Program-made: the position numbers and the translations under genes
Assembly (NCBI GenBank): GCA_028712255.1
Contig: JAQTQJ010000002.1
Location: forward strand, 22,846 to 86,845
Direction: 5' to 3'
DNA: 64,000 bases
Origin: Candidatus Omnitrophota bacterium
Lineage (GTDB): Bacteria; Omnitrophota; Gorgyraeia; Gygaellales; Profunditerraquicolaceae
Notes under the pieces: generated by a model
The model's database searches: none
The model's input: the letters and a program-made list of their open reading frames with translations, nothing else
What the model was told of the DNA's origin: nothing
Shown: one piece after another, positions 2,871-63,700 of the stretch
How the letters are laid out: every line of letters starts with the position of its first letter
Position numbering within the stretch: the first letter of the stretch is position 1

Positions 2871-3278
2871 GTATCCCCCTCCCCTTGTGGGAGGGGAAAG
2901 GGGCGGGGTAGGTGAAGGGCAAATTGACATCCACTGCCAGGAAGTTAAGGAATAATTCCACAGAAACTGAAAAATGCCTCTGGCAGGCGCTTCGTTACCA
3001 TGGGCTTGGGGTTAAGTTTCGCAGGCAGGCTGTTATCGGCCGGTATATCGTTGATTTTGTATGTTTTGAAAAGAAATTGATTATTGAAGTTGACGGTGGA
3101 CAGCATTCATCATCACAGGAAGATATTGAACGTGATCAATGGCTGCTTAAGCAGGGGTTCAAGATTTTAAGGTTTTGGAATCATGATGTGCTTGGCAATC
3201 AAGAGGGAGTTTTATCTAAGATAGTTGATTCTTTAAAATTGCCCCCTCCCTATCCCTCCCCACAAGGGGGAGGGTATC
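2871..3278 (+). mobile_element. Compact DUF559-endonuclease cassette bounded by ~37-bp GC-rich imperfect inverted repeats, each itself a palindrome
   Basis: Left arm at 2871-2908 is gtatccccctccccttgtgggaggggaaaggggcgggg. The reverse complement of the right arm at 3241-3278 aligns to it at roughly 30 of 36 positions. The arms are far more GC-rich than their surroundings. Confidence 0.45.
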
Positions 3279-3298
3279 TCAATGGGATAAAATTATGA
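2912..3298 (+). CDS. DUF559 (endonuclease-domain, Vsr-like fold) protein
   Basis: Core VDF…EVDGGQH…D..RD..L…G..ILRF.N..V is typical of DUF559. GTG start sits directly after the left repeat. The C-terminal tail LPPPYPSPQGGGY is encoded by the right repeat and the stop overlaps the tmk ATG. Confidence 0.7.
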   Translation: MKGKLTSTARKLRNNSTETEKCLWQALRYHGLGVKFRRQAVIGRYIVDFVCFEKKLIIEVDGGQHSSSQEDIERDQWLLKQGFKILRFWNHDVLGNQEGVLSKIVDSLKLPPPYPSPQGGGYLNGIKL

Positions 3299-3903
3299 AA
3301 GGTAAATTCATTACATTCGAAGGGTCTGAGGGCTGCGGGAAGAGTACGCAGTCAAAAATGCTCTTTGACTGTCTTTTAGCAAAGGGGTTAAAGGTGATTT
3401 ATCTTCGCGAGCCCGGAGGTGTCAATGTAAGTGAAATGATTAGGGAGATATTGCTTAATCCTAAAAATAAGATATCTGCCGAAGCCGAGACTTTGCTTTA
3501 TATGGCTGCCCGCGCTCAAGTAGTTGAAGAGATTATTAAACCTGCGCTTATGGCGGAAAAAATAGTTATTTGCGATAGATTCATGGATTCAACTATTTGT
3601 TATCAGGGTTATGGATTAGGCATAGATATAAAATTAATTAAATCCATCGGTAATTTTGCTACTAGCGGTATAAGCCCTGATTTAACTATTTTTTTGGATC
3701 TACCTGTTAAAAGTGGGCTTAAATATCGGCATAAGTGCAAAGATCGTATCGAACAACGCTCTATCGGCTATCATGAGAAGGTGAGGAAAGGGTATCTTAG
3801 GCTTGTTAATAATGAGCCAGGAAGAATTAAGATAGTTAAGGTAGAAGAGAATAAATTTGAAACTCAAGCTAAAGTCAGGGAGATTGTGAATGCACTTTTC
3901 TGA
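3295..3903 (+). CDS. tmk: Thymidylate kinase
   Basis: P-loop FITFEGSEGCGKSTQ and the DRF…S motif. Confidence 0.9.
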   Translation: MKGKFITFEGSEGCGKSTQSKMLFDCLLAKGLKVIYLREPGGVNVSEMIREILLNPKNKISAEAETLLYMAARAQVVEEIIKPALMAEKIVICDRFMDSTICYQGYGLGIDIKLIKSIGNFATSGISPDLTIFLDLPVKSGLKYRHKCKDRIEQRSIGYHEKVRKGYLRLVNNEPGRIKIVKVEENKFETQAKVREIVNALF

Positions 3904-10395: not shown

Positions 10396-10460
10396 GTCAT
10401 TCTGAGGGAGCGAAGCGACCGAAGAATCCAGATCCTTCGCCCTTCGGGCTCAGGATGACG
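10396..10460. repeat. Second full copy of the nested-palindrome repeat
   Basis: gtcattctgagggagcgaagcgaccgaagaatccagatccttcgcccttcgggctcaggatgac. Confidence 0.5.
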
Positions 10461-10496
10461 GAAAATGGTATTTTACAACAGTGCCAAGGTAGATAA

Positions 10497-11393
10497 ATGC
10501 AATTAAATAAAATTGGTGAATTTGGTTTAATTGAAAGGTTTCAGAGGATGATTAAAACTAATTCTTCTGTAATCCAGGGTAGCGGTGATGATTGCGCGGT
10601 TTTAAAGCTGGATAAGTTTAATTACCAGTTGTTTACTACCGATATGATAATTGAGGGGATAGATTTTAAAAAAAATGAAAATCTCAAGCTTGTAGGCAGA
10701 AAGTCCCTGGCTATCTCAATCAGCGATATTGCCGCCTGCGGTGGTATTCCTATGCATGCGGTAGTTGCCCTTGGCCTGCCGCAAAATATGCAGGTTAAAC
10801 AGGTTGACCTATTGTCTAGGGGTATATTTGATTTGGCGAAAAAATTTAATATTAATATTGTCGGAGGGGATATCAGCGTCTCGGATAAATTGATTATTAA
10901 TGTGAGTATGTTGGGCAGTGTTGAAAAAGATAAACTTTGCTTGCGCCTTGGCGCAAAAATAGGCGATATTATTATGGTTACCGGTGAGTTTGGCGGTTCG
11001 ATAAAAGGGAAGCATCTAAAATTCATTCCTCGCCTGAAGGAGGCGCGTTTTTTAGTGAATAATTTTAAAATTAATTCAATGATTGATGTTTCTGACGGGT
11101 TAATCCAGGATTTAGGGCATATTTTAGAACAGAGTTTGGTGGGAGCGGTTTTATATGAGAGCCTTATTCCGCAAAGCAAGGAGGCCAAAGGGCTAGAGGA
11201 TGCGCTTTATTCAGGTGAGGAGTTTGAATTGGTTTTTACGGCGTCAAGAGATCAGGCAAAAAAAATTATTCAAAATTCTAAATATTATTTTAAAGTTATC
11301 GGTGAAATTATGCCGGTATCATTTGGTTTAAAAATGATTAATCTTAAGGATAAATACTCTAAGATCAGGCTGCAGGGGTTTAAACATTTTTAA
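10497..11393 (+). CDS. thiL: Thiamine-monophosphate kinase
   Basis: GEFGLIERF…GDDCAVL N-terminus typical of ThiL, with PurM-like fold. Confidence 0.85.
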   Translation: MQLNKIGEFGLIERFQRMIKTNSSVIQGSGDDCAVLKLDKFNYQLFTTDMIIEGIDFKKNENLKLVGRKSLAISISDIAACGGIPMHAVVALGLPQNMQVKQVDLLSRGIFDLAKKFNINIVGGDISVSDKLIINVSMLGSVEKDKLCLRLGAKIGDIIMVTGEFGGSIKGKHLKFIPRLKEARFLVNNFKINSMIDVSDGLIQDLGHILEQSLVGAVLYESLIPQSKEAKGLEDALYSGEEFELVFTASRDQAKKIIQNSKYYFKVIGEIMPVSFGLKMINLKDKYSKIRLQGFKHF

Positions 11394-11861
11394 ATGGAAA
11401 AAATATCTACTTCGGTTAATCAAACATTAAAAATAGGCAGTAAACTGGCAGGCTATCTTCGCGGAGGTGAAATTATTCTTTTATCCGGTTGCCTCGGTGC
11501 AGGCAAGACGGTTCTGGCTAAAGGGATTGCTCAGGGATTAGGGATTAACAAAGATTTTGTAATTAGCCCGACTTTTGTCCTCTTGCGCGTACATAAAGGT
11601 AAGCATCTGCTGCAGCATTTTGATCTTTACCGTTTGAAATCTATCGAGGATATTTTTGCTTTAGGATATGAAGAATATTTTTACTCGCAGGCCGTAACGC
11701 TTATTGAATGGCCCCAACGGTTGAAATTTCTCTTGCCAAAGGAATTTTTAAAGATTATTCTATCTGTGAAAACTAAAAATAAAAGGCTAATTAAATTCAT
11801 CGCAAAAGGAAGAAAGCATAAAGAATTATTGGAGAAAATTCATGAATCCCGCACCTTCTAG
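11394..11861 (+). CDS. tsaE: tRNA threonylcarbamoyladenosine biosynthesis protein TsaE
   Basis: P-loop GCLGAGKT in a ~150-aa YjeE-family protein. Adjacent to tsaB. Confidence 0.85.
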   Translation: MEKISTSVNQTLKIGSKLAGYLRGGEIILLSGCLGAGKTVLAKGIAQGLGINKDFVISPTFVLLRVHKGKHLLQHFDLYRLKSIEDIFALGYEEYFYSQAVTLIEWPQRLKFLLPKEFLKIILSVKTKNKRLIKFIAKGRKHKELLEKIHESRTF

Positions 11862-23181: not shown

Positions 23182-23586
23182 GGGGGTGAAAGGGTTCGAC
23201 TTAAGATATGTCGGATAAAAGCAGCATGCCGCGGACGCATGGTTAGCCGCGTTAATAATCCGTGCACAATTCAAACGCAAACACGACAGTGTCACGTTTA
23301 GGAACATTTGTCCAGCCGTCTTTTGCGGCTAGACCGATGTTTCTTCCAGCCTACTGCCCTAATTAAGGCAGTAGCCTCTAACCGTCCAGCCTACGGGATG
23401 GATTAGGGCCTTGGTAGGATAGTCTCGGCGGTTAGCCTTCCAAACTGGGATGAAATCGAAAAGGCTGCGCTTTGCAAATCCTGCCTTATAGAAGTTGCAA
23501 AGCTAAGACAAATTATAAGGCTAAGCATGTAGCGGCTTCTATTCGATTACTTAGGGACGGCGGTTCAATTCCGCCCACCTCCACCA
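23182..23586 (+). ncRNA. ssrA: Transfer-messenger RNA (tmRNA)
   Basis: 5' end GGGGGUGAAAGGGUUCGAC and 3' end GGACGGCGGUUCAAUUCCGCCCACCUCCACCA form a tRNA-Ala-like acceptor/T-arm with encoded CCA. The gene lies immediately downstream of smpB. The tag ORF could not be resolved. Confidence 0.85.
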
Positions 23587-30664: not shown

Positions 30665-30742
30665 CGGGGCGTGGCTCAGTTTGGCTAGAGCGTCCGCCAT
30701 TAGAACGTTGGCGGACGAGCGCCAAAGATTCAGTGGCGCTCG
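30665..30742 (+). other. 5' half of a tRNA-Pro-like gene (acceptor CGGGGCG plus D arm), followed by a 50-nt double-hairpin element, then disrupted
   Basis: cggggcg tg gctcagtttggctagagcg has the same D arm as the intact tRNA-Pro. Then tccgccattagaacgttggcgga + cgagcgccaaagattcagtggcgctcg. The matching 3' acceptor strand cgccccg is ~590 nt downstream at 31325-31331. Confidence 0.5.
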
Positions 30743-30748
30743 CCTGTT

Positions 30749-31000
30749 TTGATGATTATGTTTGTTTACGTATTAAGAAGTAAAAAAGATAAAAGTCTCT
30801 ATATAGGCTCAACAAAAAATGTAGATCAAAGGTTTAATAGCCATAATAGAGGAGAAAGTTTATCTACAAAATCGAAAAGACCGTGGGTATTAACTAGGGT
30901 TGAGGAATATAATAGTGATTCTTTAGCGTTAAAACGGGAAAAGTTTTTAAAAAGCGGTGAAGGTAGAAGGGTTCTTAAGAATCTAACTTTGTTTAAGTAA
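30749..31000 (+). CDS. Small GIY-YIG nuclease (YhbQ/UPF0213-like, nuclease domain only)
   Basis: GIY-YIG core FVYVLRS…SLYIGSTKNVDQRFNSHNRG, then SLAL.RE..K. Located inside the interrupted tRNA gene, 3 nt upstream of the intact tRNA-Pro. Confidence 0.75.
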   Translation: MMIMFVYVLRSKKDKSLYIGSTKNVDQRFNSHNRGESLSTKSKRPWVLTRVEEYNSDSLALKREKFLKSGEGRRVLKNLTLFK

Positions 31001-31003
31001 TAA

Positions 31004-31078
31004 CGGGGAGTGGCTCAGTTTGGCTAGAGCGCTTGCTTTGGGAGCAAGAGGTCGTGAGTTCAAGTCTCACCTCCCCGA
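31004..31078 (+). tRNA. tRNA-Pro (anticodon UGG)
   Basis: Cloverleaf with C1-G72 acceptor CGGGGAG/CUCCCCG, D arm GCUC-AGUUUGGCUA-GAGC, anticodon stem-loop CUUGC-UUUGGGA-GCAAG, T arm GUGAG-UUCAAGU-CUCAC, discriminator A. No encoded CCA. Confidence 0.85.
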
Positions 31079-31080
31079 CA

Positions 31081-31334
31081 TGTTAACGTATTGTATTTGG
31101 CTAGAGCGTCCGCCATTAGAACGTTGGCGGACGAGCGCCAAAGATTCAGTGGCGCTCGCTTGCTTTGGGAGCAAGAGGTCGTGAGTTCAAGTCTCACCTC
31201 CCCGACATGTTAACGTATTGTATTTGGCTAGAGCGTCCGCCATTAGAACGTTGGCGGACGAGCGCCAAAGATTCAGTGGCGCTCGCTTGCTTTGGGAGCA
31301 AGAGGTCACAGATTCAAGTCCTGTCGCCCCGATA
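31081..31334 (+). repeat. Two tandem ~127-bp units derived from the 3' three-quarters of tRNA-Pro, each carrying the identical 50-nt double-hairpin insert between tRNA positions 26 and 27
   Basis: Each unit is tgttaacgtattgta + tttggctagagcg + [50-nt insert] + cttgctttgggagcaag aggtc + T arm + acceptor 3' strand. Unit 1 ends ctcacctccccgaca, identical to the intact tRNA-Pro. Unit 2 ends acagattcaagtcctgtcgccccgata, complementary to the orphan 5' half at 30665. Confidence 0.6.
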
Positions 31335-31399: not shown

Positions 31400-31680
31400 G
31401 CGCCTGTAGCTCAAATGGATAGAGCACCTGCCTTCCAAAGGAGCCTCTATGGGGAAATAAAACTCATAGAGTGCATGTGGCTGTATGCAAGGAAATCCTT
31501 ATTTTTTAAGGATCACTTGCAGGCAACCCCCGCTATAAGCGGGGAGAGTCCTCAGAGACTATACGCCACACACCTGTAAAGGTGAAGACATAGTCCAGAC
31601 CGCAACAAGTGTTTCTGGCCGGAGTAATCCGGTGCGGTAAGCTAAGCCGGTTGTTGGCCGTTCGATTCGGCCCAGGCGCA
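31400..31680 (+). tRNA. tRNA gene interrupted in the anticodon loop by a ~207-nt group I intron; inferred tRNA-Arg (anticodon UCU) after splicing
   Basis: 5' acceptor GCGCCUG (31400-31406) and 3' strand CAGGCGC-A (31673-31680) are perfectly complementary across 281 nt. D arm GCUC-AAAUGGAUA-GAGC and T arm GGCCG-UUCGAUU-CGGCC are canonical. Exon 1 ends at …CCUGC-CUU (31434) and exon 2 begins after a G at CUAAGCCGG (31642). The anticodon assignment depends on the exact splice sites. Confidence 0.6.
31435..31641 (+). other. Putative group I intron (no ORF)
   Basis: Contains a P7-like pairing agACTAtacg … acaTAGTCcagac and several stem-loops (cctctatgggg/ctcatagag; cccgc-tataa-gcggg). Terminal G sits before exon 2 and a U before the 5' splice site. 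Size is comparable to the smallest known tRNA group I introns. Confidence 0.5.
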
Positions 31681-31817
31681 TTTAAATAGTATAAAGAATC
31701 GAACGGAAGGGGGTGTGGGGGAAAAGTGATGTCCCCCACGCTTTCGGGGTGACAGCGAACGAAGTGAGCGCCATAGGGGCAGAGCCCCTATGGGGAGCGA
31801 TCCGCCATAGGCGGAGC

Positions 31818-31846
31818 GCGACAAGTTCGATTCGGCCCAGGCGCAT
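31818..31846 (+). repeat. Direct repeat of the 3' end of the intron-containing tRNA (gttcgattcggcccaggcgcat), about 140 bp downstream
   Basis: A 22-nt exact copy of 31660-31681 preceded by a degenerate T-arm. The spacer is rich in small palindromes (cataggggcagagcccctatgg; tccgccataggcgga). Confidence 0.45.
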
Positions 31847-33080: not shown

Positions 33081-33096
33081 TTGTTTATAGAGATTT

Positions 33097-33160
33097 TCGT
33101 GGGTATAGCTTAGTTGTTTGCTCAGCGGTAGAGTCAGAGCGGTAGACTGTGGGCTATTTC
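33097..33160 (+). pseudogene. Degenerate duplicate of the 5' half of tRNA-His (acceptor through anticodon region)
   Basis: gtgggtatagcttag… matches the tRNA-His 5' end gtgggtatagctcag. Followed by gctcagcggtagag (D-arm-like) and gactgtgggc (anticodon-loop-like; intact gene has gactgtggctc). Confidence 0.45.
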
Positions 33161-33201
33161 ATTATTTTGATAAACTTATTGTTCTTTGATATAATTAAAT
33201 C

Positions 33202-33663
33202 ATGCCAAATCAAAAATGTAAGATTTGCGGTAAAGAATTCTATACAAAGCCTTTTCATGTGAAGAAAGGTTGGGGTAAATATTGTTCTATAAAATGTCGT
33301 TCTAAATCTCAATTTAATGGAAAATGGGTCAAATGCGTTAACTGCGGAAGGAAAATTTATAGGACCCCGCGTGATTATAGAAAATCAAAAAGCAAAAGAT
33401 TTTTTTGTTCAGTAGGTTGCCATTGTTCATGGGAAAATAAAAACGTGCGTTGTGGCGTTAATGCGCCAAATTGGATTGCTGGAGAAAATGCTTATAGGGA
33501 TATAATGAGAAGGTCCGGTATAGTAAAAAAATGTAATAAATGCGGAATAGATGATAAAAGAATTTTGGCAGTCCATCATAAAGACGGGAATAGAAAAAAT
33601 AATGTAATAGAAAATTTAGAATGGCTCTGTCGCAATTGTCATTTTATTGTTCATTGGTATTAG
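33202..33663 (+). CDS. HNH endonuclease
   Basis: N-terminal CxxC zinc knuckles (CKICGK, CVNCGR) and HNH core AVHHKDGNRKNNVIENLEWLCRNCH. Lies between the tRNA-His 5' fragment and the intact tRNA-His. Confidence 0.75.
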   Translation: MPNQKCKICGKEFYTKPFHVKKGWGKYCSIKCRSKSQFNGKWVKCVNCGRKIYRTPRDYRKSKSKRFFCSVGCHCSWENKNVRCGVNAPNWIAGENAYRDIMRRSGIVKKCNKCGIDDKRILAVHHKDGNRKNNVIENLEWLCRNCHFIVHWY

Positions 33664-33668
33664 TTTTT

Positions 33669-33746
33669 GGTGGGTATAGCTCAGCTGGATAGAGCACCTG
33701 ACTGTGGCTCAGGTTGTCGCGAGTTCGAATCTCGTTACCCACCCCA
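33669..33746 (+). tRNA. tRNA-His (anticodon GUG) with encoded G-1 and 3' CCA
   Basis: G-1 pairs with discriminator C73. Acceptor GUGGGUA/UACCCAC, anticodon stem-loop CCUGA-CUGUGGC-UCAGG, T arm GCGAG-UUCGAAU-CUCGU, then CCA. Confidence 0.9.
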
Positions 33747-63561: not shown

Positions 63562-63700
63562 AGCTAAGATTTTATAGTCTCATAAAAATGGGTTCAGGAG
63601 TATCTTCCTGAAGGTTTAGATGGTCGGGCCGCCATCTGCGATTATCGCAGGTGTCGGTTTTTTATTTTTTAGCGTTTAAGTTAAAAGAAAGGAGTCTTTT

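Follow-up and report, generated by a model that had tools for sequence, protein, structure and literature searches.

Does the segment at positions 31400-31680 of the window, the whole 64-kb stretch of DNA analysed here, hold a single tRNA gene interrupted by a group I intron, and if so, which tRNA is interrupted, where does the intron begin and end, and how does it relate to introns already described? Here we report with high confidence that the segment encodes tRNA-Arg(UCU) and that the anticodon is interrupted, after U34 and before C35, by a group I ribozyme of 207 nt, of the bacterial tRNA-intron type and IC3-like in architecture, vertically inherited and present in its ORF-less form. The original prediction of a compact, ORF-less group I intron in a tRNA anticodon loop is borne out by a match to the Rfam model RF00028, by in-silico splicing and by an alignment of homologues. 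Catalytic (splicing) activity of the window intron is predicted from these sequence comparisons.

A tRNA-Arg(UCU) gene interrupted in its anticodon loop

The RF00028 scan, which had been proposed as a check, gave a match of 68.5 bits at 31424-31617 against a gathering score of 50 (E = 2.9e-15), covering the full model from 1 to 253. The folding energy of the precursor lies well below that of shuffled sequences (z = -6.4), and the combined pattern of exons and core had no match in 100 shuffles of the window. A search for ORFs within the 207 nt found none belonging to the intron itself, only spurious overlapping ORFs that cross it.

The host tRNA becomes visible once the intron is removed. Neither ARAGORN nor the Rfam tRNA model calls a tRNA in the unspliced genomic sequence at 31400-31680, and after in-silico deletion of 31435-31641 ARAGORN reports tRNA-Arg(tct), 76 nt long, whose acceptor, D and T arms are canonical. 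A splice between positions 34 and 35 had been expected to leave the anticodon loop CUUCUAA and hence a UCU anticodon for arginine; joining 31434 to 31642 gives this loop and the tRNA-Arg(tct) call. The features on which the expectation was built are likewise present, namely perfectly complementary acceptor strands (GCGCCUG/CAGGCGC), canonical D and T arms in the ARAGORN drawing of the spliced tRNA, a U at the 5' splice site (U34, 31434) and a G at the end of the intron (31641). The predicted exon junction reads GCACCUGCCUU followed by CUAAGCCGGUUG, with CCUGCCUU and CUAAGCCGG immediately at the join, and an intron-less allele of the site would read GAGCACCTGCCTTCTAAGCCGGTTG. Coordinates of the exons, the intron and its helices are collected in Table 1.

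Table 1. Exons, intron and modelled helices of the split tRNA-Arg(UCU) gene (positions in the window; helices from our own P1-P9 model; compensatory changes counted on the 19-sequence alignment described below).
Feature	Positions	Strand	Sequence, conservation and basis
5' exon of tRNA-Arg(UCU)	31400-31434	+	35 nt; ARAGORN on the spliced sequence; conserved in 19/19 homologues; acceptor 5' strand, D arm GGAUAGAGC with A20, anticodon-stem 5' strand CCUGC, then C32 U33 U34; reads GCGCCUG UA GCUC AAAUGGAUA GAGC A CCUGC CUU
Group I intron	31435-31641	+	207 nt, no ORF of its own; RF00028 match, ends set by the tRNA exons
P1	31432-31435 with 31440-31443	+	C32-G31443, U33-A31442, U34.G31441 wobble, c31435-G31440; loop CAAA
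P2	31445-31453 with 31463-31471	+	9-bp hairpin with conserved A-rich loop GAAAUAAAA; compensatory changes in 9/9 pairs
P3	31476-31481 with 31565-31570	+	UGUGGC/GCCACA; compensatory in 5/6 pairs
P4	31486-31491 with 31516-31521	+	UGCAAG/CUUGCA; compensatory in 2/6; 100% paired
P5	31496-31501 with 31507-31512	+	Hairpin UCCUUA/UAAGGA, joined by J4/5 and J5/4; compensatory in 2/3 at its base
P6 and P6a	31522-31551	+	P6 (GG/CC) plus P6a hairpin; distal 17 nt are 31529-31545
P7, 5' strand	31555-31561	+	G, bulged A, GACUA (G31555, A31556 bulged); invariant in 19/19; RF00028 consensus AGACUA
P8	31571-31584	+	Hairpin CACC(U)-GUAA-(A)GGUG; compensatory in 2/4; 100% paired
P7, 3' strand	31591-31596	+	UAGUCC, after J8/7 GAAGACA; invariant; matches RF00028 consensus; pseudoknot with P3
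P9	31599-31604 with 31633-31638	+	ACCGCA/UGCGGU; compensatory in 3/6; encloses a small variable hairpin and P9a
P9a	31619-31632	+	CCGGA-GUAA-UCCGG, GNRA loop; compensatory in 5/5
omega-G	31641	+	Final intron nucleotide; invariant column G242; required for a 7-nt anticodon loop
3' exon of tRNA-Arg(UCU)	31642-31680	+	39 nt; sequence and ARAGORN on the spliced sequence; C35 U36 A37 A38, anticodon-stem 3' strand GCCGG, variable loop UUGUU, T arm, acceptor 3' strand, discriminator A, CCA not encoded; reads CUAA GCCGG UUGUU GGCCG UUCGAUU CGGCC CAGGCGC A

The spliced product has the nucleotides A20, C35, U36 and A73, which we take to be the arginine identity elements (a set known from E. coli ArgRS). 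Across the 44 long ORFs of the window, AGA accounts for 20% and AGG for 25% of arginine codons, and this tRNA reads AGA and probably AGG. Because of this codon usage, and because no second tRNA-Arg was found within the 64-kb window, splicing is probably needed for growth.

Conservation, intron variants and a lineage-specific mismatch

We searched 185,579 species genomes with a degenerate pattern of 26 bases built from an Arg-type D loop, CUU, J6/7-P7 and P7'. It matched 26 loci; 24 are complete, and in-silico splicing of each yields tRNA-Arg(tct). The intron lies at 34/35 and is 192-236 nt long in 18 of these 24, with MAG labels of Omnitrophota, Elusimicrobiota, Planctomycetia, Clostridia, Acidobacteria and Halothiobacillus. 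Six matched loci belong to Colwellia and Thalassotalea; the five complete ones have an Azoarcus-like intron at 36/37, and the other (L024) ends at a contig edge.

The window and the 18 sequences with an intron at 34/35 were aligned (n = 19), and the P1-P9 and cloverleaf model was counted on this alignment. In it 98.9% of cells are paired, against 32-43% when partners are slid, and double-sided changes occur in 38 of 72 pairs, against 5-10 in the slid controls; none of 500 shuffles attains the observed values. The tRNA helices show compensatory pairs as well (T stem 4/5, acceptor stem 5/7), and every core position that is invariant in the family is intact in the window intron. This comparative evidence argues strongly for a group I fold and a tRNA that would both be functional. 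Counting all searches, the same intron at the same site was found in 18 further species genomes and in about 17 metagenome contigs, and the window intron is 70-80% identical to the Omnitrophota/Elusimicrobiota set.

The metagenome contigs come from a scan with a pattern at the junction of P9 and the 3' exon, which yielded 20 contigs. L031 and L032 are close relatives of the window (RNase PH 95%, RdgB 85-89% identical). The gene order FumB / RNase PH / RdgB / tRNA-Pro / intron-bearing tRNA-Arg / DUF748 / tRNA-His is conserved in the relatives, and in L031, L032, L036, L040 and L043 the locus is simple, running from RdgB through tRNA-Pro, the intron-bearing tRNA-Arg and the DUF748 gene to tRNA-His wherever the contig extends that far. 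Among the named loci, the closest proteins are those of two from Omnitrophota (L008 and L010), which have the same synteny at 60-70% protein identity, so that the window probably belongs to that lineage. An exact-sequence search with the window's RdgB protein gave no match, and none of the 46 loci collected is identical to the window. Because close relatives show this simple, un-rearranged locus with the intron in place, the intron-bearing tRNA-Arg is ancestral at the locus in this clade, and the other oddities of the cluster are later insertions.

Within the clade the intron takes several forms. Four contigs (L037, L038, L042 and L044), compared with the window precursor after splitting at conserved anchors, are 94-96% identical to it outside distal P6, where about 450 nt replace the 17-nt tip of the window's P6a (31529-31545) and supply an AGGAGG ribosome-binding site and a 151-aa ORF. 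The encoded protein is a PD-(D/E)XK endonuclease (PF11645 PDDEXK_5, 101.9 bits), and its sole match of solved structure is PDB 2OST, presumably the homing endonuclease I-Ssp6803I, which is encoded by the tRNA-fMet intron of Synechocystis. Because four near-identical relatives carry an endonuclease gene in the P6 loop, the window intron is, on this comparison of sequences, the ORF-less form of a mobile intron.

A second core, which we call variant B, occurs in L030-L032, L034, L036, L039, L040 and L043. Its exons are identical to those of the window and its P1-P2 and P9 are similar; the P3-P8 core is different, with P7 reading GACUU/AAGUC. The core may thus have been replaced, or have recombined, at a single site of insertion. 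At E <= 0.1, RF00028 did not detect the variant-B introns or the intron of L026, and it scored the endonuclease-bearing forms at only 23-25 bits; all of these were identified instead by their exon framing and by alignment. The endonuclease-bearing, ORF-less and variant-B forms look like stages of a homing cycle at one site, within which we infer the order of gain and loss of the endonuclease gene.

The anticodon stem of the tRNA, CCUGC/GCCGG, contains a U29.C41 mismatch (31428 and 31648) and so departs from the five Watson-Crick or G.U pairs of a canonical elongator tRNA. In the 19-sequence alignment this mismatch is the sole unpaired anticodon-stem cell, and more distant homologues all have U-A at 29-41. 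Because the 3' exon with C41 is found in 17 of the 20 metagenome contigs, and CCUGC in every contig whose 5' exon is visible, the mismatch is best read as a fixed trait of the lineage, neither an error nor recent decay. A paper on tRNAs with a 4-bp anticodon stem (PMC13092985) was considered as support and set aside; it dealt with the 27-43 pair, and with neither tRNA-Arg(UCU) nor introns.

The mismatch is also a ground for suspecting a decaying relic, that is, an intron that no longer splices or a tRNA that no longer functions, with AGA and AGG read by a gene outside the window. The odd variable loop UUGUU, the loss of the homing endonuclease gene relative to the four contigs that carry it, and the heavy rearrangement of the tRNA cluster around the intron could all be taken in the same sense. 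We consider decay very unlikely, for the intron retains the complete invariant core of its family, and the C41 exon persists in combination with two intron cores and both with and without the endonuclease gene, which indicates selection. Moreover, the Levitt pair still covaries (A15 with U48), and no second tRNA-Arg turned up within the 64 kb. An intact, intron-bearing tRNA-Arg(UCU) gene with an inherited mismatch is the reading that we carry forward.

Ribozyme fold, splice junctions and known relatives

The precursor would fold into P1-P9 as laid out in Table 1. The U.G pair of P1 at the 5' splice site is present in 19/19 sequences, and the fourth P1 pair is C-G in 16 of them and U.G in 3. 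The guide had been expected to pair with CCUGCCUU; this holds for C32-U33-U34, paired by GAG (31441-31443), together with one base pair of the intron itself, and the guide does not extend to the remainder of CCUGCCUU. A P10 is possible, in which G31440 and A31439 would pair with C35 and U36. The P7-like pairing already noticed in the letters is present as GACUA (31557-31561) with UAGUC (31591-31595), and the presumed guanosine-binding pair, G31557-C31595, adjoins the bulged A31556 and is invariant in 19/19.

By analogy with the mechanism established for the family, a free guanosine bound in P7 would attack the phosphate after U34, which would be held in its U.G wobble by the guide. The terminal G31641 would then occupy the guanosine site, and the 3'-OH of U34 would attack the 3' splice site, so that CCUGCCUU would be joined to CUAAGCCGG and the anticodon loop CUUCUAA formed.

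A real intron with its ends elsewhere, either a 5' junction after U33 or a 3' end at 31617, would agree with the cmscan alignment, which pairs U33 with G and ends at G31617. Cutting after U33 leaves an anticodon loop of 6 nt that ARAGORN cannot assign, and ending the intron at 31617 gives no intron-free tRNA in silico, so both ends were rejected. The P1 register of the covariance model, with its wobble at U33, was discarded for the same 6-nt loop; the U34.G31441 register is equally long, closes a 4-nt loop and, together with omega-G31641, is invariant in 19/19. P9 and P9a, which lie beyond 31617, covary. The RF00028 match stops at 31617 because the model is without the extended P9/P9a and omega-G, the latter in keeping with the report that RF00028 does not model omega-G (Williams 2020, bioRxiv 10.1101/2020.01.27.920355). 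We regard displaced junctions as highly improbable, and place the splice sites at 31434/31435 and 31641/31642.

A UCU-Arg host and so small a size had both been thought unusual, and neither view survives comparison with published introns. Williams 2020 raised the number of bacterial tRNA intron types from the four classical ones to 21, and its seed alignment includes an Arg.3Ug type represented by Rba190.Arg.3Ug, whose P1 is CUUC-AAUA-GGAG. Among the entries consulted in Table S5 of PMC13011429 (mSystems 2026), the 'Arg (TCT) 34/35' introns come from Bacillota and Bacteroidota, and most are labelled IC3, one IB3. In the same survey tRNA group I introns span 184-894 bp and average 257, a range that takes in the window intron as does the 192-236 nt of our homologues, and it reports PD-(D/E)XK endonuclease genes in tRNA-Arg(UCU) introns. 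Our search of the literature found nothing on tRNA introns in Omnitrophica.

The window intron shares with these Arg.3Ug or Arg (TCT) 34/35 introns the host tRNA, the 34/35 site, the U at -1 and the G at omega, and has a similar P2, P7-P8-J8/7 and P9 with GNRA loop. Its P1 is the same as that of Rba190.Arg.3Ug (CUU before the splice site, then C...GGAG), and it is 64% identical overall to the Bacteroidota intron of GCF_000246855.1. It differs in coming from an Omnitrophota-like lineage, where the examples in the consulted portion of the table are from Bacillota and Bacteroidota; in its P4-P6 domain, which reads UAUGCAAGG...CUUGCAGGCAACC instead of the UAUCGGUGAA...CCGAGGAAAC of the listed introns; and in adding the conserved U29.C41 mismatch in its exons. 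The PD-(D/E)XK genes reported for tRNA-Arg(UCU) introns in that survey have counterparts in the relatives described above, whereas the window intron has none. As to subgroup, P2, the lack of P2.1 and P5abc, and the GNRA loop of P9 are IC3-like, and the P4-P6 sequence resembles introns labelled IB2 in PMC13011429. The window intron is a further member of the known Arg(UCU) 34/35 class, and neither its host nor its size is unusual.

Likenesses extend to the better-known tRNA introns. The cyanobacterial and plastid tRNA-Leu(UAA) intron (Leu.3Ug) interrupts the anticodon loop at the same site after U34, behind an exon that also ends in CUU, and is an ORF-less, compact ribozyme like that of the window. 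It differs in its tRNA, its P2 and its P4-P6, and identity to an acidobacterial Leu(TAA) example is about 55%. The introns of Azoarcus tRNA-Ile(CAU), about 205 nt and thus comparable to the 207 nt found here, and of alpha-proteobacterial tRNA-Arg(CCU), both IC3, are likewise small anticodon-loop ribozymes with P2, a P9 with GNRA loop and no P5abc, but they lie at 36/37 and the window intron at 34/35. An Azoarcus-like core (GUCAAAUUCGGGGAAACC...GGCAAUCC.GAGCCAAGC) is present in the Colwellia and Thalassotalea introns at 36/37 and in Halothiobacillus L011, and absent from the window intron. The Synechocystis tRNA-fMet intron (I-Ssp6803I) houses a PD-(D/E)XK gene in a peripheral loop, as do the relatives of the window intron; its tRNA and site (33/34) differ, and the window intron is without an ORF.

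The surrounding tRNA cluster and what the intron means

Partial tRNA duplications abound in the cluster (tRNA-Pro, a 5' fragment of tRNA-His and a 22-nt repeat of the tRNA-Arg 3' end) and might invite the view that there is no intron at all, only half-tRNA fragments of a split or permuted tRNA, or insertion debris, on either side of an unrelated structured RNA; this is hardly credible, given that the intervening RNA exceeds the group I gathering threshold, that several phyla share the same exon-intron-exon unit, whose helices covary in the tRNA as well as in the intron, and that the closest relatives carry the unit in a simple, un-rearranged locus. The fragments and inserts near the interrupted tRNA-Arg gene are described here in their own right.

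Directly after tRNA-Arg lies a hairpin-rich insert of 143 nt (31682-31824; MFE -62 kcal/mol, no Rfam match), on either side of which the last 22 nt at the tRNA 3' end stand as a perfect direct repeat (31660-31681 and 31825-31846). The insert is absent in L029-L032 and L040; a homologue of it, with the same repeat, is found in L028, and L037 and L042 have in its place an unrelated insert of about 74 nt with a 15-nt repeat. It looks like a small non-autonomous element targeting the tRNA 3' end, or the remnant of an att site.

Upstream, an ancestral tRNA-Pro(UGG) is split across 30665-31333, with its 5' part at 30665-30692 and its 3' part at 31284-31332. At tRNA-Pro position 26/27 stand three identical 49-nt double-hairpin units (30693-30741, 31109-31157 and 31236-31284), and an 80-aa GIY-YIG ORF (30758-31000; Pfam, 65 bits) begins in the anticodon arm, which is degenerate. 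Another tRNA-Pro, this one intact (31004-31079), has different acceptor and T stems, and the region also contains two 127-nt repeats; the relatives have a single, plain tRNA-Pro. The arrangement resembles a GIY-YIG cassette directed at tRNA genes, which would supply a tRNA of its own in place of the one it disrupts.

Fragments of a similar kind occur in other contigs. About 330 nt upstream of tRNA-Arg in L039 (oriented positions about 3180-3508) is a 5' tRNA-Arg fragment with a 20-nt D-loop palindrome that ends at the anticodon CUU, followed by an ORF of about 79 aa, GIY-YIG by eye, and then by the complete intron-containing tRNA-Arg. L037, L042 and L044 show 5' tRNA fragments of 12-14 nt and small inserts upstream of complete tRNA genes. 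In the window, the region 33091-33746 holds a tRNA-His 5' fragment (about 33098-33116), which matches the beginning of the real gene at 85%, and an ORF for an HNH endonuclease of 153 aa (33202-33663; HNH_3, 27.5 bits) just upstream of the intact tRNA-His (33670-33746); in the relatives, tRNA-His comes directly after the DUF748 gene.

Farther away, a tmRNA gene at 23182-23586 (156 bits) is predicted to encode an unusual tag, which closes with GWIRALVG where LAA would be typical, and it carries some 50 inserted nt that the Rfam model lacks; the tag of L031 is AKPLTVLPTGWIRDLVG. In L037, a weak RF00028 match on the minus strand (10446-11088; 30.8 bits, below the gathering score) abuts a tmRNA gene at 11077-11458; it may represent a further group I intron, or what is left of one, beside or within the tmRNA gene. 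An nhaA-I riboswitch match lies at 63590-63637 in the window (44.8 bits against a gathering score of 37), and the element is also found in L031.

It is unlikely, in our estimate, that the clade-wide U29.C41 mismatch is other than neutral, tied either to the intron and endonuclease system or to the decoding of AGA and AGG. If it were, the altered exon might, for instance, spoil the near-palindromic DNA target at which the PD-(D/E)XK endonuclease cuts, or adjust how the precursor folds; alternatively, a looser anticodon stem would let one tRNA-Arg(UCU) read both AGA and the commoner AGG. The tRNA cluster could then be viewed as an arena in which tRNA genes are contested by small repeat-flanked inserts and by endonucleases of three families: PD-(D/E)XK (intron), GIY-YIG (tRNA-Pro and tRNA-Arg) and HNH (tRNA-His).

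General knowledge of group I introns is unchanged by the window intron; what it adds is that the Arg(UCU) 34/35 class is now documented in Omnitrophota-like and neighbouring lineages. For annotation, standard tRNA finders overlook the intron-split tRNA-Arg(UCU) gene, since neither ARAGORN nor the Rfam tRNA model recognises it before the intron is removed, and the genome would therefore seem to be without a decoder for AGA and AGG, which make up 45% of arginine codons. With identical exons at one site, the endonuclease-bearing form, the ORF-less form and the second core variant provide a compact natural series for the homing cycle.
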